Shown here: positions 1 through 15,515 of the stretch, piece after piece
Position numbering within the stretch: the first letter of the stretch is position 1
Layout: every line of letters begins with the position of its first letter
DNA from: a virus
Strand: one strand, 5' to 3'
DNA length: 64,000 bases
Virus record (IMG/VR): IMGVR_UViG_3300028392_001993
Location: 1-64,000 of that record
The notes under the pieces: model-generated
What the model was told of the DNA's origin: nothing
Databases searched by the model: none
The model's input: only the letters and a program-made list of their open reading frames with translations
Program-made: the position numbers and the translations under genes

Positions 1-1271
1 CACTCTTGGTCAACACTCTGGCTCAAATGGATGCTGAAGTTTTACGGCCCTACGATGAACAACCAGACAAACCTGGCGCACCACAGACCGGCACAGGAAC
101 CTATGAACTGTTTGATAGACGCACTGGTGAGGCCATTCCCGACACTGAATTCTCTGCTCGCAATCAAGCAGATGTAAACACAAGATTAGATGATTATATC
201 AATTTTGGTCCCCACGGCATAGGCACAGTAGATGCTAGATTGGTGTTTGGTGCCAGACCCGTGGGTGATGCTGATCAAGGTACCCTGTCCAACAGTCTGC
301 GACCCACAGGTCCTGGACCTTGGGAAATCTACAACAGAGCGACTGGTAACTCGGCTGCTAACCTCAGTGTGGACGGCCGACCCATAACTGATCGTGCTCA
401 AGCACAACGCATGGCCATGGGAAGTATTGCCGCTGGACAACATGACAATTATGGCGTGAGAACTAGAGGCACACTTAGTGGGGCCAACATAGGCACACAA
501 ACCGACATGGAAAACCGCTTGGGTATGCCCAGTCAATCAGAGGACGCCAACTATGCAGTTGTGGATCGCCAAACTCTTGACCCGGTGTTTAGATTCCGTG
601 CAGCCGATAGAACCCAAGCCAATAGAATCTATGGTCTTTGGCTGACAGCCGCAGGCCTGCCCCAAACCACCGAAGACTACGGATTCCAAGAGATCAGACC
701 CGAATCTGTTGCTCAGCGACCTTCTGAAATCGCACGTGACTGGCGCATAGTGGATCGTGCGACTGACGAGACACTCAACACCGTACGTGGTGCCAGTCAG
801 GATCAGGCCCTGGCAGTGCGAGCCGACACAGCCCGCAGACATGGTGTTGATGCCAGTCAACTGAGCCTGCAGGTGATATTCAATCCAGCCGCGACCAATG
901 CGTCTGGTATCGTAGATCAGCGCAGTGACAGAACTGATGGCCGCAACACGGATTACTCATTCAGAGACTTGTTTGGCACCAACCCCACAGCAGATCAACA
1001 GCAGGGTGGCATAGTTGATGTGGCACCCGATGTGGCACAGAACTTCCCACAGGCTTCGGACAATGTGTATGGTGCAACAGGTCGCGCCAGTTCGGCACCA
1101 GCAGGCAATCAGTTTTCGGGACAGTGGCGGGTGGTTGATGTTCAGGGCCGTGAAGTATATCGTTTCCGTGGTGTGGGCAATAGTCAAGCCGATGCCAATA
1201 GAATTGCTTCATTATGGGCCATAGAAAACAACTATCGTGGCAACCTTCAAGTGTTACCGGTGATGATATGA
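1..1271 (+). CDS. Large virion-type protein with internal repeated domain (5'-truncated by window)
   Basis: ORF is open to the window edge; five copies of a W/Y-x-I/V-x-D-R...A-x-R motif; stop overlaps next ATG (ATGA). Confidence 0.7.
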   Translation, partial: LLVNTLAQMDAEVLRPYDEQPDKPGAPQTGTGTYELFDRRTGEAIPDTEFSARNQADVNTRLDDYINFGPHGIGTVDARLVFGARPVGDADQGTLSNSLRPTGPGPWEIYNRATGNSAANLSVDGRPITDRAQAQRMAMGSIAAGQHDNYGVRTRGTLSGANIGTQTDMENRLGMPSQSEDANYAVVDRQTLDPVFRFRAADRTQANRIYGLWLTAAGLPQTTEDYGFQEIRPESVAQRPSEIARDWRIVDRATDETLNTVRGASQDQALAVRADTARRHGVDASQLSLQVIFNPAATNASGIVDQRSDRTDGRNTDYSFRDLFGTNPTADQQQGGIVDVAPDVAQNFPQASDNVYGATGRASSAPAGNQFSGQWRVVDVQGREVYRFRGVGNSQADANRIASLWAIENNYRGNLQVLPVMI

Positions 1272-3328
1272 TCCTAACAGACTTGTTTGAATCCCAAGAA
1301 ATACACAACCAAGATCGACTGGATCAGGTGCTGGCACGTTGTATTGAAATGGTACACGAAAAAAATCGCGCCAATCCCAAAAAATATGGTAAGGTAGCGG
1401 CCTGTATCATTGACATGAAAAATCGCAAAGTGTTTGGCATAAACTCGCCTGGTGCCAATGGCACACGACGTCATGCTGAACGTGTGGCTATAGATGCTTA
1501 TCACAAGCGATATGGCAAGATCCTGCCTGGCGCCATTATTGTCACAACACTGAGTCCTTGCAACAGACCCATGGCCGAACGTGATGGTCCCAGTTGCCAA
1601 GACCTGCTGATGCAAGCGGGTATCGAAAAAGTCTATTCAGGCTATATGGATCCTAGTCAACATAGTGATCATCCATTCACAGAAGAAACAACCAAGAATG
1701 ATCAGTTGTGGGAGATCTGCAAACAACTCAGCGATAGTTTTGTACATGATGACCTTACAGAAGGTACTGAAAACCGTGCTGATGCTCAACAAGTGTTGGA
1801 CTATATTCATGGCACACACCATGAAAAGCTCACTCGAGAATTACAACGTGCAGTATTGAGCTATCCACAGTGGCAATTGAAAACTGTGCTATTACGCAGT
1901 TTACACATTCCTGACCAAGAGTATGACGATGAAGAACAAGAGCCCGAAGCGGATCCCTACAACCGAGTACAGGTAATAGACCCCGAACATGCCGGCGAAT
2001 ACAGCGCAAACTTTGTGGACAGTAGACCCATTGTGGTTGATCGTGAAGGTTGGATCATAGATGGCAATCACAGAGCCTGGGCTGCCGCAGAGTTATTGAA
2101 CAAAGACAGTATCAAAGCATGGGTTCCGGTTAAGAAACAAGGCGTAACAGAAGCCTTTGATCAACCTTATGCTGTTGAATGGAGCAAACAAAATGGTGAC
2201 TGGCATGCCACAGCCGACTTGGATGACGGCAGTGAACTGATTGTGTTGTTCATGGCACAAGGCGACAACAGCTGGATGGTAGAGTTTGAGCGTGACGAAA
2301 ACATGGACATCACCGGCGAAGGCGATGCTCCTCGTGTGTTTGCCACGGTGTTGACTGCTATGCAACAATTCATTGCCAAGCGTAAACCAGCAATGTTGAA
2401 TTTCAGCGCAGAGAAAGAAGACGACCCCACAGGCAGTAGAGCCCGACTGTATGATAGAATGATTCAGCGTTATATCACTGGTAGTGGTTACGATTTGACA
2501 AGAAAAGATGTGCCAGGTGGCGCAACTTATACGCTGACAAAACAAGCGCCGGGTGTGGCGGAAGGCTTGGATGATAATAGAGTTAGTTTTAAGGTACAAA
2601 AAGGTAAAAACAAATTTGCAACTACTTTAAGTGTTGGTGTTAACCCAGTAGGAGTATACCAATATGATGCTGATACAGGTCGTAGTGTGGCCGAGGTTTA
2701 TCCAGAATTCAAAGGCAAAGGATTAGGTAAATTATTAGTTTTACATGCTATCTATACCGCGGCCAAATTGGGATTAGATTTCCAAGAAGATGAATCAAGA
2801 ACTTCAGAGTATGATAATGTATTAGATAGTTTGAGTAGCAACGGTTATATTGTAGATGACGATGGTTATTGGTATGTTACCGGCGAAGGTGAACAATATC
2901 TACAACACTCATTAAAGCAAGGTGTGGCGGAAGGCGTCTATCGCGGCGACTGGGTACGACATCCAGACAATCCATGGCAGATAGGTCAAATACAAAGTAT
3001 TGACAATGGTCAAGCCGCGGTCATATGGAAAAAGACTGACAAAAGAAAGAAGGCAATGTCATCAACTCATGCAGTTGATGCCCTACAACATGCCAGGCGT
3101 GAGTTCTCTCAATTGACACAACCCACACATACACCGGGTATGGCAGAAAACTTTGCTGATGGTAAAAACCCTGGCCGCAAAGGACTTGCCAAACGCTCAG
3201 GTGTCAATACCAAAGCAAGTGTTAGCACTTTGAGAAATGTTGCCAAACATTCAACAGGTGAGAAGCAACGCATGGCACATTGGTTGGCCAACATGAAGGC
3301 TGGTAGAGCAAAGGCACGTAAAAAATGA
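1268..3328 (+). CDS. Multi-domain polyprotein: Zn-deaminase, ParB/Srx-like, unknown alpha/beta domain, GNAT-like, SH3-like, conserved basic C-terminus
   Basis: ATG at 1268 overlaps upstream stop; HAE...PC...C deaminase motif; IIDGNHR ParB motif; PEFKGKGLG acetyl-CoA-binding GNAT motif; linkers DLTEG, QGVTEA, PGVAEG, QGVAEG, PGMAEN. Confidence 0.75.
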   Translation: MILTDLFESQEIHNQDRLDQVLARCIEMVHEKNRANPKKYGKVAACIIDMKNRKVFGINSPGANGTRRHAERVAIDAYHKRYGKILPGAIIVTTLSPCNRPMAERDGPSCQDLLMQAGIEKVYSGYMDPSQHSDHPFTEETTKNDQLWEICKQLSDSFVHDDLTEGTENRADAQQVLDYIHGTHHEKLTRELQRAVLSYPQWQLKTVLLRSLHIPDQEYDDEEQEPEADPYNRVQVIDPEHAGEYSANFVDSRPIVVDREGWIIDGNHRAWAAAELLNKDSIKAWVPVKKQGVTEAFDQPYAVEWSKQNGDWHATADLDDGSELIVLFMAQGDNSWMVEFERDENMDITGEGDAPRVFATVLTAMQQFIAKRKPAMLNFSAEKEDDPTGSRARLYDRMIQRYITGSGYDLTRKDVPGGATYTLTKQAPGVAEGLDDNRVSFKVQKGKNKFATTLSVGVNPVGVYQYDADTGRSVAEVYPEFKGKGLGKLLVLHAIYTAAKLGLDFQEDESRTSEYDNVLDSLSSNGYIVDDDGYWYVTGEGEQYLQHSLKQGVAEGVYRGDWVRHPDNPWQIGQIQSIDNGQAAVIWKKTDKRKKAMSSTHAVDALQHARREFSQLTQPTHTPGMAENFADGKNPGRKGLAKRSGVNTKASVSTLRNVAKHSTGEKQRMAHWLANMKAGRAKARKK
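2552..2566 (+). repeat. GGTGTGGCGGAAGGC direct repeat, copy 1 (encodes GVAEG)
   Basis: Identical 15-mer at 2921-2935; 13-nt core again at 7938-7950. Confidence 0.9.
2921..2935 (+). repeat. GGTGTGGCGGAAGGC direct repeat, copy 2
   Basis: Exact match to 2552-2566; with copy 1 it brackets the GNAT domain. Confidence 0.9.
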
Positions 3329-3765
3329 AAATCTCAGAAGTATTCAACCAGCCCTATGCTTTTAGATGGGACAGCGACAGTGATAACGACACTTACAATG
3401 CTCATACACGACTGCCTGACGGCACCAATCTAACAATCAATTTCTATACCGATCCTGGTGTTGACGGCGATGAAGATTGGGTGGTTGAATTTTGGCGTGG
3501 CAGCCGTTTGGACATTTCCGGAGCCGGTGATCAACAGCGTGTGTTTGCCACAGTGCTAACAGCAATTGGCCAATTCATAGAAATGCAAGAACCTGAAACC
3601 CTGCGGTTCACAGCACACAAAGATGTTGAGCCTGGACAAAAGCCCATGAGCCGAAGCAACCTCTACGACCGACTGGTGCAACGCTATGCTCAAGCCTGGG
3701 GTTATAGATTGGATCGCAGTGACATGGCCGACACCACCGTTTACTTACTGTATAGAATAAGATGA
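3325..3765 (+). CDS. Hypothetical virion-type protein, stand-alone paralog of an internal domain of 1268-3328
   Basis: Shares F(D/N)QPYA-x-x-W, G(E/A)GD..RVFATVL.A..QFI and SR..LYDR..QRY with the upstream polyprotein. Confidence 0.75.
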   Translation: MKISEVFNQPYAFRWDSDSDNDTYNAHTRLPDGTNLTINFYTDPGVDGDEDWVVEFWRGSRLDISGAGDQQRVFATVLTAIGQFIEMQEPETLRFTAHKDVEPGQKPMSRSNLYDRLVQRYAQAWGYRLDRSDMADTTVYLLYRIR

Positions 3766-4023: not shown

Positions 4024-4923
4024 ATGACTGAAAAAATTCACTTAGACAAACTTGAGTTCTACATTACCAATGTATGTAATCTCACCTGTTCAAACTGCAA
4101 CAGATACAACAACTTTCACTTTCGAGGCTGGGCCAAGTGGGATGACTACGCCGAAGATCTAGAACGACTGAGTCATCGTGTGCATGTGCAGAAGCCAGTT
4201 ATTCTAGGCGGAGAGCCACTGCTGAACCCTGACATTGTGAAGTGGATCAGAGGCTTACAACGTTTATGGCCCAACAGTTACTCCGCGCAAATACAAAGTA
4301 ACGGCACTAGAATCGATCGTGTGCCAGGGTTGTATGAAGCACTACAAGAGGTCGCTGGTAGTTGGATTGGTGTTAGTATACATCGACCTGAGGATCGTGA
4401 AGAAATATTTGTCAGGATCCGTAAATTTCTACAAGGCGATATAACCTACAGTGAAGACCCAAACAACTCAATGGGTAGTGTATATCAATTCAGAGACACT
4501 AACGGTGTTGAAGTACATGTATGGAACAATGACATGTTTGGCAACACAAACATACTTGAGCAGCCTAATGGTCGATTTGGACTTTACAATAGCGATCCCG
4601 ATCGTGCTCACGAAATCTGTTCATTTAGAAAATGGAAAAATTATCACTGGATAAATGGAAAAATTTACAAATGCGGTCCAGTGGCCTTGATGCCTGAATT
4701 TGATCAACAACATCAATTTGATATTAGTAATGAAGACCGAGAAATCCTAAATGGATATCGTGGACTGAGTATGGACGAGTTTGATTCGCGTGGTCAAGAA
4801 TTTTTCAACACCATTGACAATGTTATTCCACAATGCAAGTTTTGCCCAGAATCTATAGAATATCGTCCAGTATACTTTACCAATACCAAAAAGTCATGGC
4901 GTGTTGAATCAGTGACCGCTTGA
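4024..4923 (+). CDS. Radical SAM protein
   Basis: CNLTCSNC, GGEPLL, QSNG motifs; paralog of 57153-58187. Confidence 0.85.
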   Translation: MTEKIHLDKLEFYITNVCNLTCSNCNRYNNFHFRGWAKWDDYAEDLERLSHRVHVQKPVILGGEPLLNPDIVKWIRGLQRLWPNSYSAQIQSNGTRIDRVPGLYEALQEVAGSWIGVSIHRPEDREEIFVRIRKFLQGDITYSEDPNNSMGSVYQFRDTNGVEVHVWNNDMFGNTNILEQPNGRFGLYNSDPDRAHEICSFRKWKNYHWINGKIYKCGPVALMPEFDQQHQFDISNEDREILNGYRGLSMDEFDSRGQEFFNTIDNVIPQCKFCPESIEYRPVYFTNTKKSWRVESVTA

Positions 4924-5943
4924 TCCGCAACTGGTAACACAGGTATAAAGTCGGCCTTCAGCAATGCTGGGTCGTGCCCAAGTTTCATCCACACGATCAA
5001 ACCAGGCCAGGCAATGTGCCAGATCATACTCCAGGGCATTGTTCTCTTGCACTAGATCTTTCAGTTGTGTATTGCCTGCGTGATGCATTTGCTTGGGATA
5101 AAATCCTGTAAAGCAACAAGGATATACTGATCCATCGGCAGCAATGTAAATTTCTCGATTCTTCAAGTGTTTGCAATTGTATTCAATATTGGGTTTGTCT
5201 TGTGGAATTGAATCTTTGCTGACTGCAAACCAGGTCACGTGTCCTTCGAGCAGGTACTTGACTGGTGGCACTCCGTCAGCATATTCATTTTTGCCCAAGT
5301 AGTGGCTGTATTCGCCTGCTCTGGTAAAAACAGGACCAGTGTCTCTGCCATCATAGATATTTTCAAAACGCCAAAAGCCCATCTTTTCTGCCATGGCTCT
5401 GCACTCTGCTTCTTGATGACGATTGTGCTCAAACGGAACAAAACGCCAGATGGCACGCCCACCTGCATTGATATATGCCTGTGCATTTTCTATCACACGA
5501 TTCCAGTCTGTATCCTGACGATATAATCCGTGTGTGTCAGCAAGCCCGTCTATGGCAAATCCAATCTGTACCCCCGGTAGGGCCAATCGTGCCCACCATG
5601 CAGGACTACGCAAACTGCCATTGGTGTTGATGTTTACTGTGACTCTGTTTGCTACAACATATTCAACAATTTCTGCACCGTCTTTTGATAGAGCAAAATC
5701 TCCCAGGTTACCATTGAAGTTAACTCCTGTCCCGGGACGATCTGTATCTAGATGAACCCCTGTTAACTGTTTTAAAAATTCAGGAGTAAAAATATGACGG
5801 AATTGGGCCAATGAAAGTTCAACGTCAGGATACCCACTATTGTAATCACTGCCGCGATAGTTTCGCATACACATAGGGCATCGTGCATTGCACCGTGTGG
5901 TCAATTCCACGTGTGCTGTGCGTATTTGATCAAGTTTAAGCAT
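4909..5943 (-). CDS. Radical SAM protein with C-terminal SPASM/twitch-like cysteines
   Basis: CNARCPMC, NTNG, DGSVYPCC. Confidence 0.85.
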   Translation of the reverse strand: MLKLDQIRTAHVELTTRCNARCPMCMRNYRGSDYNSGYPDVELSLAQFRHIFTPEFLKQLTGVHLDTDRPGTGVNFNGNLGDFALSKDGAEIVEYVVANRVTVNINTNGSLRSPAWWARLALPGVQIGFAIDGLADTHGLYRQDTDWNRVIENAQAYINAGGRAIWRFVPFEHNRHQEAECRAMAEKMGFWRFENIYDGRDTGPVFTRAGEYSHYLGKNEYADGVPPVKYLLEGHVTWFAVSKDSIPQDKPNIEYNCKHLKNREIYIAADGSVYPCCFTGFYPKQMHHAGNTQLKDLVQENNALEYDLAHCLAWFDRVDETWARPSIAEGRLYTCVTSCGSSGH

Positions 5944-7727: not shown

Positions 7728-10700
7728 ATGATAGTAGACCAATTATTCACACCCAAGCCTCTCAAAGAAGGTGGCCCATATGACTTGCCAGGCAAGGACT
7801 ATGACCGTCCTGGTGATACTCCGCGCAAAGCACCCGCTAGCGATGAACACAATCCCTATCCTTTCAGTCCGGAAGAGGATGATGATTACTTCCGTGAAAT
7901 CTTCCGCAAGAAGCGTGAAGCGGCCGCTAAAGATCAAGGTGTGGCGGAAGATTATCGTGACAGCCCAAGGGCCGGAATAGATCCAGACTTTGATTCCTTG
8001 CTTCTTCGCAGAGATGCTAGGCGCAAGGGCATGACTGTGGCTCAATATAAACATTATCTAGCAACACAGGATCAAGACAGAGAATATGAATTGACCATTG
8101 GCCCAGCGGCTCGCGCAGAATTAAAACGTCAAGCAGATGAGATTGCAGAATTAAAACGTCAGCAGTTGCGACAAGAACGTTTAGAAGATGAAGCCGCGGC
8201 ACATCAACGTTATACAGAAAAAGCCGAACGTGAGATGGAAATGGAAAAGATCCGCAAGGCTTACCAACATGAACTTAATGTAATCAATAACAAACATACA
8301 AATAGTTTACAGACATTAAATGCAGAAAACTCACACGACATACGTAAGTTATCAATACAACAACAACACGAGTTGACTATGCTAAAAGCAAATCAACCCG
8401 AACGTCCTACACGCCCACAAAGACCCGGTCGCCCACAGCGACCCACTGCAGAACCCGAAGATGACTTTGAACCAGAACCTGAGATCAGTGTTAAACCAGC
8501 ACCAATGACGTCTAATAAACCCTCTATTGGTAATGCAAATTTTGATAGTGAAACCGGAAAACCATTAAAACCACAACAATGGCACACCAGCCAACAATTA
8601 CCATATAAAAAACCCCCAGCACTGGGTTATAAAAATGATGATGATGTAACTGATATTGAACCAAAAAAGTTAGGTGAAACTGGTATTGATCGTGCAGTCA
8701 ATGACAAAGGTCTTACTCAACAACGATGGCTACAGTTAGTTCAAACTAAATTTCCAGACGCTAAAATTGTTTGTGCAAAAATGATTGACGGACCATGTCG
8801 TGCCACGTTGCCCGATGGTAAAACACTGTCTTGGGTCAAAGTAGACCAAGGTACTGATGGCAACAACAATAGCACAGGCGGTGTCAAGCCTGTTGGGACA
8901 GGCAAGTATAAGGCTTTACAAACAGGCATAGATCAGCGCAAAGCGGCCAGAGATAAGATGCAAGCATATGTTGCAACCCTTCCAACTTATACTAGAAAAG
9001 GCATGTCTGAAAGCAAACGCAACAAACAACGCCGACTAAACGAAGCCCTGCTCATGGAAGATCCTGTCTATCGCAGATTCAAGCGTGTGGGTCGTTATAT
9101 CGCGGAACAAAAATTAACTGAACCAGAAATCTTACAAATCTTCTCCGACGCCGAAGCAGGCATGACTGACAAGGCCACAGGCGCCAACCGCACTTTTGCA
9201 GGCCGTGGTAAAGATGCCACTGTGGACTTTGCCAAAGATGTAGCCGGTGCTGTTAAAGGCGTTCTCAACAGCATACAAAATTCAGTTCCTGTGGCCGCAG
9301 TTGACACGGCGTACGATCAGGCCACTGATGCTTTAGGCGACTTGGCTGGTGGACAAAAAGGTGCTGTGATGGATGCGATCAAGAAGTATCGCAATCTTGT
9401 GAAACAATATCCCAAGACAGCAGGCTTTGCCAAGGCTGCATTGGTAGCTATCGCTGGTCTTGCCACAGGCGGTGCTGGTTTGCCTGCTATTGCTGGATTA
9501 ACATACGCATTGGACTCAGCCATCAAAGGCGACAAGTTATCCAGTGTTATTGGTAAAGGTGCCGGAGCGGCCGCATTGGCGGCCGCTGGTCAAGCCATAC
9601 ACGGTGGAGCCACACAAACAGGACCTGCTGATACAAATGCATTTACCAATGTGAATCAAATGGGCGACCACACAGGCGAATACGTTGACATGCCGGACGG
9701 TTCCGATATAGTAAGTCCATTGGTAGCACCACCACCTGAACTTGCTACATATACTGTGCAATCGGGTGATACCTTGAGTCAAATTGCCCAGGCCAACAAT
9801 ACCACAGTACAAGAACTGGTTGGACTTAATCCACAACTGGCCGCCGCAAGCGGTGCCATAGGCGGACAAGGACTTAATCCTGATGTCATATTCCCTGGAC
9901 AACAAATCACATTGCCACCAGCAACACCCGGTGCAGATGTCTATGCTGGGGCAGTTGGTACCAATGCCAACACCATGGCTGATATTGCTCGTGGTCAAGT
10001 GCCCAACAGCGCAATCACACAAGGTATGGCTGCTAGAAATGCAGTAAGAGAATCCATCAAGTATCGTGCAAGAATTTTACATGCTGACAAACTAATCGAT
10101 CAAAAGGCTACAGTGCTGAACTGGGCCTTGAGCGAAAGCGTTGGTCGTAAGAGCAAGAGTGTTAACTTGACTACCTTAGGCACTTACACAGTATTTGAAA
10201 ACATCGACCGTTATCGCCGAGCAATTCTTGAAGCAACACAACCTGGTCGTCCTGAACTGCCAGATCAATATCGTCCAGACTTGCCAGGCGGCGCAGGAGT
10301 GCAATCACAGCCTGGTATGATTGGTCGTGGACTCAATTGGCTAGATAACAAAGCCAAAGCAGTAGGTGGAGCACTCAGCAACTTTGGACACCAATTTACT
10401 ACCAATGTCACAAAAGAAAAACTCAAGATGAACTGGCATCAAGCTGGCAAACCCAGTGATTCAGATCAATTGGCCGCCTGGTTGGTTGGTCAAGGTGTGC
10501 CGCAACAGGTTGTGACCAGTGTGTTTGGCAAGATGGGTATTCCATACACAGCGCCTACTACAGTACAACCAGCAGGTCAATCAGATGAACCAACCGCTAC
10601 TTCTACTGCCACAAGACAAATGCCATGGTACGGAAAAGATGCAAATGGTAAAGTACGTGATTCTGAATCATTACGTGCCCGCGGCAATGCTGAACTAGTT

Positions 10701-11360
10701 AAACGTGGATTGCCTAATATGGCCAATGCAACATCACAAGTTGCCAAAGATATTATCGCTCAAACTGGTGGCGAGCCATTGTTAAGTCAACCAACTGCAA
10801 CAACTACCCCGGCCATAACTACAACTACCACCGCCGCAGGTCAGTTCCCCGGTGAAGATCCAAATGGTCCTGGCTATGTTGGCCGTAGAGAAGTTGCTCG
10901 TCGACAAGCCGCACGTGCCGCACAAACTAGTACAACGCCTGCTAAACCTAATTTTGCTCAACAAGGTGGTGGATACAAGAGTGTGAACTATGCACCCAAT
11001 ATCAAGACTGGTGTTGGTTTGCCTAAACCAACTACTCCTGCGGCACCAATTACAACGGTATCAAAAGGTGGCCTTGACAAGAAAACACAAGATTATATCA
11101 ATGCTATCAATGCCAAACAACCAGCAAGTTTAGCAGAGAACCGTATTGCTATCGCATTGAAACAGCCAGTAGCAGAAATGTTGCAAATGGTCGAGACCAA
11201 AGAAGATGTGCAAAAGATCAAACAGTTTGTTGATCAAACATTTGCCCGCTACGGTGCTGTGAATGAATCAGCATTTGCTTTGCGTAACCAAATACTTGAG
11301 CACATAACGCAAGTTGGTGCTCAACGTCGTAGAGAACACAGCCAGAAAGTGGCCCACTAA
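7728..11360 (+). CDS. Large LysM-domain virion/ejection-type polyprotein
   Basis: YTVQSGDTLSQIA...VQEL..LNP...IFPGQQITLP LysM; Gly/Ala-rich hydrophobic segment; QGVAE linker. Confidence 0.75.
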   Translation: MIVDQLFTPKPLKEGGPYDLPGKDYDRPGDTPRKAPASDEHNPYPFSPEEDDDYFREIFRKKREAAAKDQGVAEDYRDSPRAGIDPDFDSLLLRRDARRKGMTVAQYKHYLATQDQDREYELTIGPAARAELKRQADEIAELKRQQLRQERLEDEAAAHQRYTEKAEREMEMEKIRKAYQHELNVINNKHTNSLQTLNAENSHDIRKLSIQQQHELTMLKANQPERPTRPQRPGRPQRPTAEPEDDFEPEPEISVKPAPMTSNKPSIGNANFDSETGKPLKPQQWHTSQQLPYKKPPALGYKNDDDVTDIEPKKLGETGIDRAVNDKGLTQQRWLQLVQTKFPDAKIVCAKMIDGPCRATLPDGKTLSWVKVDQGTDGNNNSTGGVKPVGTGKYKALQTGIDQRKAARDKMQAYVATLPTYTRKGMSESKRNKQRRLNEALLMEDPVYRRFKRVGRYIAEQKLTEPEILQIFSDAEAGMTDKATGANRTFAGRGKDATVDFAKDVAGAVKGVLNSIQNSVPVAAVDTAYDQATDALGDLAGGQKGAVMDAIKKYRNLVKQYPKTAGFAKAALVAIAGLATGGAGLPAIAGLTYALDSAIKGDKLSSVIGKGAGAAALAAAGQAIHGGATQTGPADTNAFTNVNQMGDHTGEYVDMPDGSDIVSPLVAPPPELATYTVQSGDTLSQIAQANNTTVQELVGLNPQLAAASGAIGGQGLNPDVIFPGQQITLPPATPGADVYAGAVGTNANTMADIARGQVPNSAITQGMAARNAVRESIKYRARILHADKLIDQKATVLNWALSESVGRKSKSVNLTTLGTYTVFENIDRYRRAILEATQPGRPELPDQYRPDLPGGAGVQSQPGMIGRGLNWLDNKAKAVGGALSNFGHQFTTNVTKEKLKMNWHQAGKPSDSDQLAAWLVGQGVPQQVVTSVFGKMGIPYTAPTTVQPAGQSDEPTATSTATRQMPWYGKDANGKVRDSESLRARGNAELVKRGLPNMANATSQVAKDIIAQTGGEPLLSQPTATTTPAITTTTTAAGQFPGEDPNGPGYVGRREVARRQAARAAQTSTTPAKPNFAQQGGGYKSVNYAPNIKTGVGLPKPTTPAAPITTVSKGGLDKKTQDYINAINAKQPASLAENRIAIALKQPVAEMLQMVETKEDVQKIKQFVDQTFARYGAVNESAFALRNQILEHITQVGAQRRREHSQKVAH

Positions 11361-11754: not shown

Positions 11755-12789
11755 GTGATTAGAGTCTTCCCGGCAAAACAATTCCAAGGACAATATTGTC
11801 TATCACCCTTTGTCATGATTGAGGTCACACTCAATGGTGACGTGAGAATGTGCGGGTGTGGCGCCTGGATGCCCAGCACTATCGGAAACCTAACCAGGAC
11901 AACTCTTAAAGAAATGTTGTCCTCGGACTTGGCGCAAAAAATTAGACAAAGCATTATCGATGGGTCTTATGTTTATTGCAATGAAAAACTATGTGGGGTT
12001 ATTACTAATAATGCTCTAAACAGCATTGATACTGTTCCGCCTAATATCACAGCATTGTTTGATGATGTATCAAAATTTGAAATGCCACATCATATTAGTT
12101 TTCAAGGTGATGAAACCTGTAATCTAAGTTGTCCTAGTTGTCGTACCTCTATCAAAAAAACATCAGCAGATAAACTACAAGAACAACAACATATAGGAAA
12201 ACTTATTTCAAAAAATTTGTTTTCTGAACCCACTGATCAAAAAATAAAATTAGAACTAAGTGGCACAGGTGAAGTATTTGCTAGTCCTCTGTTGTTGAAT
12301 TTTATTAATTCAATCGATCCATCTAACTTTCCTAACCTAGAACTAGATATTGGTACCAACGGATTACTATGCGAACAGAATTGGCATCGACTGGGATTGA
12401 TGCAATCATCAGTAAAAAAAGTAACAGTGAGCATTGATGCTTCCCAAGCCAGCACATATGAAAGACTTCGTCGTGGTGGCAAGTGGGAAAATTTATTAGA
12501 GTCTATGAATTTTTTACAAAATAAAAAACATAGCCAAGGCATAGCATTACACACTAGAATGATTGTACAACAACAAAATTATCCTGAAATTGAATCATTT
12601 TATCAAATGTGTCAACAGTTTGATGTAGACATGGTAGAATATTCAAGAGTAACAAACTGGGGAACTTGGTCCCAAAAAGAATTTCAGTTTCACGATGTTG
12701 TTAATCCTGCACATGCTGAATATGAAATGGCACAAGCAGAAATTGCCAAAGTAAAAAAATTATCAGGCACATGGTTTGCAGGACTATAA
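11755..12789 (+). CDS. Radical SAM protein with N-terminal SPASM-like Cys cluster
   Basis: C..PF.....NGDV..C.C...IGNL; CNLSCPSC; TNG; SIDA. Confidence 0.85.
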   Translation: MIRVFPAKQFQGQYCLSPFVMIEVTLNGDVRMCGCGAWMPSTIGNLTRTTLKEMLSSDLAQKIRQSIIDGSYVYCNEKLCGVITNNALNSIDTVPPNITALFDDVSKFEMPHHISFQGDETCNLSCPSCRTSIKKTSADKLQEQQHIGKLISKNLFSEPTDQKIKLELSGTGEVFASPLLLNFINSIDPSNFPNLELDIGTNGLLCEQNWHRLGLMQSSVKKVTVSIDASQASTYERLRRGGKWENLLESMNFLQNKKHSQGIALHTRMIVQQQNYPEIESFYQMCQQFDVDMVEYSRVTNWGTWSQKEFQFHDVVNPAHAEYEMAQAEIAKVKKLSGTWFAGL

Positions 12790-12854: not shown

Positions 12855-15515
12855 TTGAGTTACATTGACGCATTATTTGATCGTGAGCACGATCGCATTC
12901 ACACAGTAGAACGCCGCAATGGCGAACGAGTATATAGAGAGTATCCCGCCAACTACATATTCTATTATGATGATCCCCGAGGTAAATTCCAAAGCATCTA
13001 TGGCACACCCGTATCAAGATTTTCTACACGCAATAACAAAGAGTTCCGCAAGGAAGTCCGCGTTCACAGCCATCGGCCGCTTTACGAAAGCGACATCAAC
13101 CCAATCTTTAGATGCCTTGAAGAAAACTACAAGGACCAAGATGCGCCTGAACTTCACACAGCGTTTTTTGACATTGAGGTGGCGTTTGATCAAGATCGCG
13201 GCTTCTCACCTGTATCAGACCCTTTTAATCCCATTACTGCAATCTCGGTCTATCTGGACTGGCTAGATCAACTGGTAACACTTGCTGTGCCACCCAAACA
13301 TCTAAGTTGGGAAACAGCACAAGAACTGGTCAAAGACTTTGAAAACACAATCTTGTTTGCTGACGAAGCAGACATGATCAAGACCTTCCTAGACTTGATT
13401 GACGACGCAGACGTAGTATCAGGTTGGAATAGTGAAGGCTATGACATTCCTTATACTGTAAACAGATGTACTAGAGTGCTATCAAAAGATGACACACGCA
13501 AGTTTTGTTTGTGGGGGCAACTGCCCAAGAAGCGTATGTTTGAACGCTTTGGTGCCGAAAACGAAACCTATGACTTGATTGGTCGTGTGCATATGGACTA
13601 TATGCAACTGTATCGCAAGTACACCTATGAAGAACGCCACAGTTATAGCCTGGATGCTATTTGTGAATACGAACTGGGTGAACGCAAGACACAGTTCGAA
13701 GGCACCCTGGATAGTTTGTATAACCAACACTTCAAAACATTTATTGAATACAACCGCCAAGACACATTGTTGATTGGCAAGTTAGATAAAAAACTACGCT
13801 TCTTGGACCTGGCCAACGAACTGGCACACGCTAATACTGTGTTGCTCCAGACCACTATGGGTGCGGTAGCAGTAACTGAACAGGCTATTATCAATGAGGC
13901 CCACGAACGTGGCATGGTTGTGCCCAATCGCAAGCAACGCCTTACAGACGAGGATACACAGGCCGCGGGTGCCTATGTTGCTTATCCCAAGAAAGGTGTG
14001 CATGAGTGGATTGGTTCAGTTGACATTAACAGTCTGTATCCAAGTGCTATTCGCGCAATGAATATGGGTCCGGAGACTGTGGTAGGACAACTACGCCAGA
14101 CCATGACAGATCACTTGATCAAAGCCAACATGGCCAAAGGTCAGAGTTTTGCGGCTGCATGGGAAGGTATCTTTGCCAGTTTAGAATACACAGCCGTGAT
14201 GAATCGAGAACGTGGCACAGAGATTACCATTGACTGGGAGAACGGCGAAGAGAGTGTACACTCAGCCGCAGAGATCTGGAACATTATATTTGATTCAAAC
14301 CAACCTTGGATACTCACTGCTAACGGCACTATTCTTACATTTGAGAAGAAAGGTATCATTCCCGGCTTGCTAGAACGTTGGTATAGTGAGCGCAAGGACT
14401 TGCAGGCTCGAAAGAAGGACGCAAAAGATGCCAAAGAAATTGCTTTCTGGGACAAACGACAACTGGTTAAAAAGATTAATCTCAACAGTTTGTACGGGGC
14501 TATTCTTAACCCGGGCTGTAGGTTCTTTGACAAACGTATTGGACAGTCAACGACACTTACTGGTCGTTCAATTGCCCGGCACATGGACGCTCATCTTAAT
14601 GAGTGTATCACAGGCGAATATGACCACGTGGGCAAAGCAGTCATCTACGGGGACACAGACTCGTGTTATTTCTCCGCGTGGCCGGTCCTCAAGAAAGAAG
14701 TCGAAGAAGGCCGGATGGCATGGTCAAAAGAGGCTTGTATTCAACTGTATGACAGCCTTGCTGAGCAGGTCAACGAAAGTTTTCCCGGCTTCATGGAACA
14801 GGCGTTCCATTGTCCCAGGGATATGGGCGAATTGATCAAGTGTGGTCGTGAAACAGTGGCGGATCGTGGGCTGTTTATTACCAAGAAACGTTATGCTGTA
14901 AATGCCATTGACATTGAAGGTAAACGACTTGATATCAATGGTTCAATTGGCAAGACCAAAGCCACAGGACTTGACCTAAAACGCAGTGATACACCCAAAG
15001 TAATTCAAGACTTCTTGTTAGAAATTCTAAATAAACTACTTGCTGGCGCAGGTAAAGATGAGATTGTGGAACGTATTCGTGAATTCAAGTATGAGTTCAA
15101 AGAGCGTCCAGGTTGGGAGAAAGGCTCACCCAAGCGTGTGAATAACTTGACCAAGTACTTGGCAGAAGAAACACGATTAGGCAAGGCTAATATGCCCGGC
15201 CACGTGCGAGCCGCAATCAACTGGAATAACATGCGTAAGATGAATAGTGACAACTATAGTATGCAAATTGTGGATGGTATGAAAACTATTGTGTGTAAAC
15301 TCAAGTCAAATGCTCTAGGTTGGACATCGATTGGTTATCCCACAGACGAGCAACGGCTGCCAGCTTGGTTCACTGCATTACCATTTGATGATGGAGAGAT
15401 GGAAGCAACTGTGGTCGATGGTAAAGTTGATAACTTGCTGGGTGTGTTGGATTGGGATTTAGCATCAGCAACCAACACAGAAAATACATTTACTAGTTTG
15501 TTTGACTTCGAATGA
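12855..15515 (+). CDS. Family B DNA polymerase (gp43-like), uninterrupted
   Basis: Exo motifs FDIE, GWNSEGYD, YNRQD; polymerase motifs DINSLYPS, KINLNSLYG, YGDTDS, KKRY; TTG start with GGAG RBS. Confidence 0.95.
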   Translation: MSYIDALFDREHDRIHTVERRNGERVYREYPANYIFYYDDPRGKFQSIYGTPVSRFSTRNNKEFRKEVRVHSHRPLYESDINPIFRCLEENYKDQDAPELHTAFFDIEVAFDQDRGFSPVSDPFNPITAISVYLDWLDQLVTLAVPPKHLSWETAQELVKDFENTILFADEADMIKTFLDLIDDADVVSGWNSEGYDIPYTVNRCTRVLSKDDTRKFCLWGQLPKKRMFERFGAENETYDLIGRVHMDYMQLYRKYTYEERHSYSLDAICEYELGERKTQFEGTLDSLYNQHFKTFIEYNRQDTLLIGKLDKKLRFLDLANELAHANTVLLQTTMGAVAVTEQAIINEAHERGMVVPNRKQRLTDEDTQAAGAYVAYPKKGVHEWIGSVDINSLYPSAIRAMNMGPETVVGQLRQTMTDHLIKANMAKGQSFAAAWEGIFASLEYTAVMNRERGTEITIDWENGEESVHSAAEIWNIIFDSNQPWILTANGTILTFEKKGIIPGLLERWYSERKDLQARKKDAKDAKEIAFWDKRQLVKKINLNSLYGAILNPGCRFFDKRIGQSTTLTGRSIARHMDAHLNECITGEYDHVGKAVIYGDTDSCYFSAWPVLKKEVEEGRMAWSKEACIQLYDSLAEQVNESFPGFMEQAFHCPRDMGELIKCGRETVADRGLFITKKRYAVNAIDIEGKRLDINGSIGKTKATGLDLKRSDTPKVIQDFLLEILNKLLAGAGKDEIVERIREFKYEFKERPGWEKGSPKRVNNLTKYLAEETRLGKANMPGHVRAAINWNNMRKMNSDNYSMQIVDGMKTIVCKLKSNALGWTSIGYPTDEQRLPAWFTALPFDDGEMEATVVDGKVDNLLGVLDWDLASATNTENTFTSLFDFE

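Follow-up and report, generated by a model that had tools for sequence, protein, structure and literature searches.

Here we report a short DNA element, the linker, that joins protein domains in frame in two large genes of an uncultured phage. The window analysed is the whole stretch of 64,000 nucleotides (nt) at positions 1 to 64,000 of the IMG/VR virus record IMGVR_UViG_3300028392_001993 (178 kb), and the gene under study is a polyprotein gene at 1268–3328, whose modules are separated by the peptide G-V-A-E or variants of it. The linker is widespread: in multidomain proteins of uncultured giant T4-like phages it stands between hundreds of unrelated domain cassettes. We consider it likely that it serves two purposes in the cargo polyproteins of this phage clade, as a protease site and as an in-frame recombination patch.

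An earlier note on this DNA had proposed that the linker codons double as a recombination site. Gain, loss and exchange of cassettes at linkers and the fixation of their silent positions agree with that proposal, and neither of the two findings that the note had named as refuting it was obtained; that DNA identity is the cause of recombination, and not a mere trace or by-product of it, is what we infer. The chances are about even that the linker DNA is selected as a portable in-frame joint, an 'integron without an integrase' that trades capsid-cargo enzymes across lineages with <70%-identical cores, the same six codons being the protease site.

Linker copies in the window and in related phages

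Two repeats are exact in the window, the 15-mer GGTGTGGCGGAAGGC at 2552–2566 and 2921–2935 and the 16-mer CAAGGTGTGGCGGAAG at 2918–2933 and 7935–7950, the latter shared between two different genes as the earlier note had stated. Two of the copies lie in a 704-aa open reading frame (ORF; 1214–3328) and one in a 1210-aa ORF (7728–11360), and all three translate in frame as G-V-A-E. When the repeat was counted against expectation, as had been suggested, the 13-mer core was found at only three sites in the whole record, all on the + strand, and dinucleotide-preserving shuffles gave a mean of 0.06 and 0.01 matches for the two repeats, with 0 of 100 shuffles reaching 3. The codon GCG is present in all three copies, accounts for 7.9% of the Ala codons genome-wide, and is used by none of the seven V-A-E tripeptides listed outside the two linker genes; the shared G-V-A-E codons are thus not explained by codon bias, and the synonymous positions are identical beyond what the protein would need. 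The idea that the three copies match by chance or codon bias has nothing in its favour except the shortness of the repeat. It is contradicted by the shuffles, by a probability of ~3e-4 (calculated from genome codon usage) that three G-V-A-E peptides share all codons, and by the existence of hundreds of further linker copies, and we regard it as refuted.

Relatives were obtained by searching IMG/VR with the protein, which yielded 79 loci whose matches to the query break near residues 447–465 and 570–574. The large ORFs of these relatives contain 90 G-[VMLI]-A-E joints, 58 of which are exactly GGTGTGGCGGAA, so that the synonymous codons of such linkers are not random. The sequence logo of 70 unique sites gives the consensus AAG CAA GGT GTG GCG GAA GGC, with third positions 80–93% conserved and no conservation beyond about 21 nt. 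Codon use in these linkers (GGT 91%, GTG 80%, GCG 87%, GAA 93%, CAA 86%) differs from genome-wide use of the same codons (38%, 31%, 8%, 75% and 72%, respectively). Since the 70 sites were ascertained by protein homology and not by a DNA word, their silent-site conservation is not circular. Within linker-bearing ORFs, GCG makes up 84% of linker Ala codons versus 7% elsewhere, a figure that is inflated because many of these linkers were found by an exact 17-mer.

At least 120 further IMG/VR stretches contain the exact 17-mer, with up to four copies per locus, and 102 of the 103 sites examined are in the QGVAEG frame of long ORFs. Eight linkers stand in one ORF in L032/L033, and five large relatives (209–367 kb) carry 1 to 12 matching sites each, clustered in few genes per genome. 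The domains found in the linker proteins of relatives include GNAT, deaminase, ParB_N, nucleotidyltransferase, GIY-YIG, TonB_C, a DnaJ-type zinc finger and many DUFs. Domains carried by polyproteins of relatives at L031:3778-9012 and L032:4840-8040 are a GIY-YIG nuclease, a nucleotidyltransferase and TonB_C; the TonB_C domain sits behind a weak, below-threshold TAT-signal-like stretch and is unexpected for presumed cytoplasmic cargo. Among cultured phages, blastn with the gene gave no match, and the nearest by tblastn were Vibrio T4-like phages, which share one module at about 30% identity. Bacterial genomes gave scattered single matches to the 17-mer in high-GC DNA and in all six frames, 35% of them in the QGVAEG frame. 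These were rejected as hosts or prophages and attributed to chance background.

The constraint on the linker was resolved by codon in 463 unique in-frame sites with at most three mismatches to the 18-nt consensus. Synonymous and non-synonymous changes were similarly frequent at Gly (21/35), Val (34/34) and Ala (26/29). The Glu codon had 27 synonymous and 2 non-synonymous changes, and this residue therefore appears to be held by protein function. From these comparisons, GGTGTGGCG behaves as conserved DNA and not as conserved amino acids. The silent sites of the linker are more uniform than the four-fold sites of the capsid gene (0.56–0.65 identical among three of these genomes) and of the protease gene (0.39–0.58), and they remain GC-rich (GTG, GCG) in genomes of 35–39% GC.

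Such conservation could also stem from a role in translation or in the mRNA, the block acting as a G-rich Shine-Dalgarno-like or rare-codon pause for domain folding or as an RNA processing site. Translational pausing at domain borders is an established idea, GCG is rare in this genome and the block is rich in purines and in G. Five of the six codons, however, are not rare; GGT, GAA and CAA are the commonest for their amino acids. An Rfam scan of the linker gave no match, and RNA folds around five linkers were neither significant nor common to them (z −0.86 to +0.81). This explanation would also leave unexplained that breakpoints and cassette insertions or deletions fall exactly on the block. 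It is distinctly unlikely as the origin of the conservation, and such a function could be an added role. A reading as an internal start with a Shine-Dalgarno sequence was rejected: no start codon lies downstream at a constant distance that could be used, and the residues that follow are variable.

Cassette borders and exchange events

The 704-aa ORF consists of six modules in the order deaminase, ParB-like, DUF6934-like, GNAT-like, DUF3553-like and basic C-terminal tail, and the joints between them read EGTE, QGVTE, PGVAE, QGVAE and PGMAE. The first module is a deaminase of the cytidine/dCMP type (Pfam E = 8e-13). The N-termini of relatives and of the second linker-bearing gene suggest that the true start of the first gene is Met19 at 1268. 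The features of the two genes are as follows; HSP denotes a high-scoring segment pair in comparisons with relatives.

1268–3328, + strand: polyprotein gene; ORF open from 1214, likely start Met19 at 1268; six modules
1760–1771, + strand: decayed linker E-G-T-E, the deaminase/ParB-like border by segment mapping
2138–2152, + strand: decayed linker Q-G-V-T-E (CAAGGCGTAACAGAA), the ParB-like/DUF6934-like border; ten HSP ends nearby, counted in a window set 3 nt upstream
2549–2566, + strand: 5' linker copy P-G-V-A-E-G, containing the exact 15-mer 2552–2566; similarity to at least 15 loci begins at 2552
2564–2932, + strand: mobile cassette (residues 451–573), made up of a GNAT-like core and a small winged-helix-like end, with a 3' linker of its own (..SLKQGVAE)
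2918–2935, + strand: 3' linker copy Q-G-V-A-E-G, containing the exact 15-mer 2921–2935; HSPs end at 2931–2936 and new ones start at 2915–2918
2933–3148, + strand: DUF3553-like module, closing with the linker variant P-G-M-A-E (3134–3148)
3149–3325, + strand: basic C-terminal module (NFADGK.PGRKG...KK); HSPs start at 3137–3146
7728–11360, + strand: second linker-bearing gene, 1210 aa, with a LysM domain and the leader MIVDQLF
7935–7950, + strand: third linker copy Q-G-V-A-E-D, following a 74-aa N-terminal segment
7950–9034, + strand: post-linker segment of about 1.1 kb, missing from the syntenic L004 gene and replaced by a different module in L005

In more than 15 loci, nucleotide similarity to the window sets in at 2552 and breaks off at 2931–2936; further similarities begin at 2915–2918 and 3137–3146, and an eight-way alignment shows unrelated flanks joining the conserved cassette at the linkers. 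Inside the gene, 160 blastn HSP ends were counted, which are not phylogenetically independent; 64% of them fall within 8 nt of the five linkers, which cover 7.6% of the gene. Near the joint at 1760, similarity to L004 and L005 ends at 1765–1804 and similarity to L020 and L034 begins at 1777. The module that follows the decayed linker at 2138–2152 is preceded by an intact Q-G-V-A-E in L007. The DUF3553-like module is 96–98% identical in nucleotide sequence to copies in L014, L015 and L023, whose neighbours differ. At the third linker, in the second gene, similarity stops at 7950 in L005 and L029 and at 7939–7940 in L004 and L048.

The 692 modules of 233 unique linker-bearing ORFs fall into 531 clusters, and where a cassette recurs at least three times, its left and right neighbours almost always vary. 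Every copy of the GNAT-like cassette is 123 aa long, and this cassette was found with eight different left neighbours and seven different right neighbours.

The earlier note had also called for a comparison of related phages at the repeat boundaries, and precise presence and absence of domains was found there. L013 and L037 share 95.6% identity along 2 kb that run up to the final base of a linker, after which L037 has an extra deaminase cassette of 468 nt. Cassettes are replaced between two linkers in the pairs L013/L016 and L011/L037. In L191 (IMGVR_UViG_3300025466_000012, positions 833–1234), a cassette of 201 nt (67 aa) is tandemly duplicated with two nucleotide differences between the copies, and the linker between them is a hybrid, its 5' half matching the downstream linker and its 3' half the upstream one. 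An unequal crossover inside the linker would be expected to give such a hybrid, although an assembly error is possible in a single case.

The same pattern could be a passive trace of rare illegitimate recombination followed by selection, the linker DNA being inherited from one recently expanded ancestral linker and having no role in exchange. Because cassettes bring their own 3' linker, identity by descent explains part of the conservation; the homology patch is short, and decayed linkers (GVTE, EGTE) still stand at module borders. On the other hand, the 5' borders lie at the same nucleotide in at least eight independent contexts and the cassette length is invariant, whereas random breakpoints would leave remnants of neighbouring modules. 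The GC-rich third positions within low-GC genomes, the greater uniformity of linker silent sites relative to the four-fold sites of the capsid and protease genes, and the position of the L191 crossover inside the linker also speak against a passive trace. We consider this explanation unlikely, while granting it some weight, and retain the reading of the linker as a place of exchange.

The GNAT-like cassette appears to be a recent arrival in the window phage. The enclosed 354 nt (2567–2920) have a G + C content of 35.9% compared with 48.5% in the preceding module, close to the hand count of the earlier note. Third codon positions account for most of the drop, their G + C fraction (GC3) being 0.227 in the cassette and 0.37–0.47 in the other five modules, which places the cassette at the 1.6th percentile among 357-nt coding windows of the genome. 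Its GC3 is low (0.19–0.34) in every context; it fits the rest of the gene in phages of 35–39% GC and stands out in those of 44–47% GC. L021, a contig of 37% GC, has a copy with 99.2% identity to the window cassette; apart from the cassette, this contig matches the genome best in the DNA polymerase gene, at 67.6% identity. Because of the near-identity of the two copies and a GC3 matching that of the 35–39% GC phages, the window phage most likely received the cassette recently from a relative of lower G + C content, and the description of the domain as foreign is a fair one.

The GNAT assignment made in the earlier note is confirmed only in part, and the cassette is best called GNAT-like. Pfam GNAT families and a winged-helix family matched 15 of 15 aligned homologues, all below curated cut-offs (best E 4.7e-5), and a PDB profile search with the cassette gave weak GNAT and eS10-like matches only (E = 0.02–0.3). 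In an AlphaFold model of the cassette (pLDDT 84.7, pTM 0.79), the low-confidence parts are the linker residues at both ends, as would be expected for flexible joints. The top Foldseek matches of the model are all MYST or GNAT acetyltransferases, with weak E values (3e-3 to 1e-2) and TM scores of 0.42–0.53, and a motif-A-like FKGKGLGK is nearly invariant across the cassette family. Older versions of the cassette end in ..SLNE right before the next module, and those of the linker clade in ..SLKQGVAE; the uniform linker appears to be a replacement or an extension of a simpler h-x-E site that came before it.

The putative protease site and a proposed mechanism of exchange

The genome is T4-like and encodes, at 151867–152502, a Peptidase_S77 (gp21-type) prohead protease, matched at 151921–152379 (PF03420, 85 bits), and a Gp23-type capsid protein at 153782–154750 (PF07068, 327 bits), both above cut-off and adjoining scaffold-like genes. 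The capsid proteins carry LKE or LAE at the position where T4 gp23 is cut. The joints of distant homologues vary (DVDE, DVSE, NIDE, GISE, LNE, IAE), and all keep [VILM]-x-E. T4 gp21 cleaves after Glu in L/I-x-E (PMC9026906), and related giant-phage proteases likewise cleave after Glu (PMC9026906, PMC5694885). Judged by its residues, the linker motif fits an (L/I)-x-E site of the encoded protease.

Both genes begin with a short leader, MILTDLFESQE at 1268 (from Met19) and MIVDQLF..LKE at 7728, with the common pattern MI(L/V)xD(x)LF. Leaders of the form M-(K/R/N/I)-x-x-(D/E/Q)-(F/L/I), an expression defined after the data had been viewed, occur in 51% of linker-bearing ORFs and 16% of others. 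They resemble the capsid targeting sequence (CTS) of T4, an N-terminal leader of about 10 residues with a cleavage site at its end. It is plausible by analogy that the polyproteins are cleaved, that their products are packaged in the capsid, and that these are injected into the host.

We propose the following mechanism. The peptide (K)-Q-G-V-A-E followed by G, D, N or A would most likely be the cleavage site of the gp21-type prohead protease, which would cut after Glu and free each module as a separate small protein. At the DNA level, the 16–21 nt of AAGCAAGGTGTGGCGGAAGG(C), identical across genes and phages, would form an in-frame homology patch at which the general recombination and replication machinery of the phage could cross over. 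A crossover between copies within one gene would delete or duplicate a cassette, and one between co-infecting relatives would insert or replace a cassette with frame and domains intact; selection for intact frames and domains would complete the shuffling.

Tyrosine (PF00589) and serine (PF00239) recombinases were not found in five genomes, including a 100%-complete relative of 367 kb, whereas control genomes were matched. Because a site-specific recombinase was not found, homologous or microhomology recombination at short identity by the general T4-type machinery is the best-supported route by analogy. For PeSL cassettes, such crossover by this machinery at short patches of identity has been put forward (PMC2839356). 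Three of the five genomes have a RecA/UvsX-like gene. In two relatives (G003:125541-126311 and G005:5660-6421) it lies only 2–3 kb downstream of the linker polyprotein gene, which may be coincidence.

The precise borders, the direct repeats that flank each cassette and the GIY-YIG nuclease domain within the polyprotein of one relative would also suit a dedicated site-specific system, in which a phage enzyme recognises the linker and excises or inserts cassettes as circles. This 'domain integron' is very improbable: besides the negative recombinase searches in the five genomes, the block has no dyad symmetry and no significant fold, and crossover in identical sequence predicts equally precise borders.

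Besides the shared ancestry of the breakpoints and the post hoc leader pattern mentioned above, several points weigh against the proposed dual role. The −3 residue of the linker is V and not the L or I canonical in T4. A patch of 16–21 nt is short for recombination of the UvsX/RecA type, so that the rate may be low and selection among rare events weighty. Metagenome assembly can make chimeras at repeats, which would nevertheless not explain in-frame cassettes of equal length from dozens of samples. The nucleotide identity could furthermore result from frequent exchange and not be selected for.

Related systems and neighbouring genes

The earlier note knew of no named system of this kind. Close analogues do exist in Botstein-type linkers, PeSL cassettes and the T-even internal-protein loci (PMC2839356); the parts of the present system are known separately as linker or PeSL shuffling, internal proteins with CTS and gp21 processing, and polyvalent proteins. 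The combination, a uniform, nucleotide-conserved in-frame joint at a presumed protease site that bounds hundreds of different domain cassettes, was not found described in the searchable literature, and a literature search for the linker peptide motif returned nothing on phages, the matches listed being mostly papers about alpha-synuclein.

The PeSL cassettes of T4-type phages (Arbiol et al. 2010, PMC2839356; PMC4122927) and the 'linker' sequences of Botstein's modular phage evolution are similar in that short conserved stretches bound variable cassettes. As here, the insertions, deletions and replacements that distinguish close relatives have their borders in these stretches, no dedicated recombinase is known and the general T4 machinery, acting on small patches of homology, is invoked. 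PeSLs are, however, intergenic, consist of a promoter and a stem-loop terminator, and move whole ORFs, whereas the present linker of 16–21 nt lies inside the reading frame, has no stem-loop, moves domains and encodes a putative protease site. The internal proteins IPI–III and Alt of T4, with their CTS and gp21 processing (PMC9026906), share with the linker proteins the T4-like background, the gp21-type protease, the Glu-terminated h-x-E sites and possibly the short CTS-like leaders, and the hypervariable T-even internal-protein loci (Repoila 1994, as cited in PMC2839356) share the highly variable cargo and the presumed role in host conflict. T4 internal proteins are encoded by separate small genes, each with its own leader; here, up to nine cassettes form one polypeptide with a putative cleavage site at each joint, the joints being conserved at the DNA level.

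Polyvalent proteins (Iyer et al. 2017, PMC5512222) resemble the linker proteins in being multidomain with unrelated activities, which here comprise deaminase, ParB-like, GNAT, nucleotidyltransferase, GIY-YIG and TonB_C. The linker proteins fall within their definition of 2–15 disparate domains per polypeptide of a phage or conjugative element, and delivery to the host and peptidase processing are presumed for both. The description of polyvalent proteins names zincin-like peptidases in cis, which are common in that family without being strictly required, and reports no uniform, nucleotide-conserved linker (PMC5512222); no peptidase family was found in the 12 linker proteins scanned, and the words 'linker' and 'shuffling' are both absent from PMC5512222. 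Integron gene cassettes likewise form arrays of exchangeable cassettes bounded by a repeated site, with a large cassette pool. They differ in the use of an integrase and folded attC sites to move whole genes, and the searches here revealed no integrase and no folded site. Tetart and colleagues are said to have described, in 1998, His-box-mediated domain swapping in the tail-fibre adhesins of T-even phages. His boxes are short conserved coding motifs within a gene that serve as recombination points for the exchange of protein segments between phages; they are a structural part of one protein family, whereas the present joints divide unrelated, independently folding cassettes at presumed cleavage sites.

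If the proposal is true, the linker would be a natural mechanism for evolution resembling exon shuffling in a virus without introns, in which a single short sequence determines frame, domain border, cleavage point and crossover point. It would also explain the very large and fast-changing repertoire of presumed anti-host effectors in giant phages, of which the 531 clusters are a sample. The 17-mer offers a simple handle by which hundreds of uncharacterised candidate cargo domains could be collected from metagenomes, and the linker suggests a design rule by which foreign proteins could be loaded into T4-type capsids as cleavable strings.

The basic C-terminal module (55–59 aa) is in terminal position in nearly all of the dozens of polyproteins that carry it (186 to 2085 aa) and always has an h-x-E joint before it; the simplest relatives have only one module, a deaminase or a GNAT, directly ahead of it. 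It may be a packaging or DNA-binding tail. Directly downstream of the polyprotein gene, an ORF of 146 aa at 3325–3765 is a free-standing paralogue of the DUF6934-like module (phrog_16075, phrog_6387), and this domain thus occurs both as a cassette and as an adjoining separate gene. Three radical-SAM-like genes at 4024–5943 and 11755–12789 flank both polyprotein genes and are followed by a T4-like family B DNA polymerase at 12855–15515.

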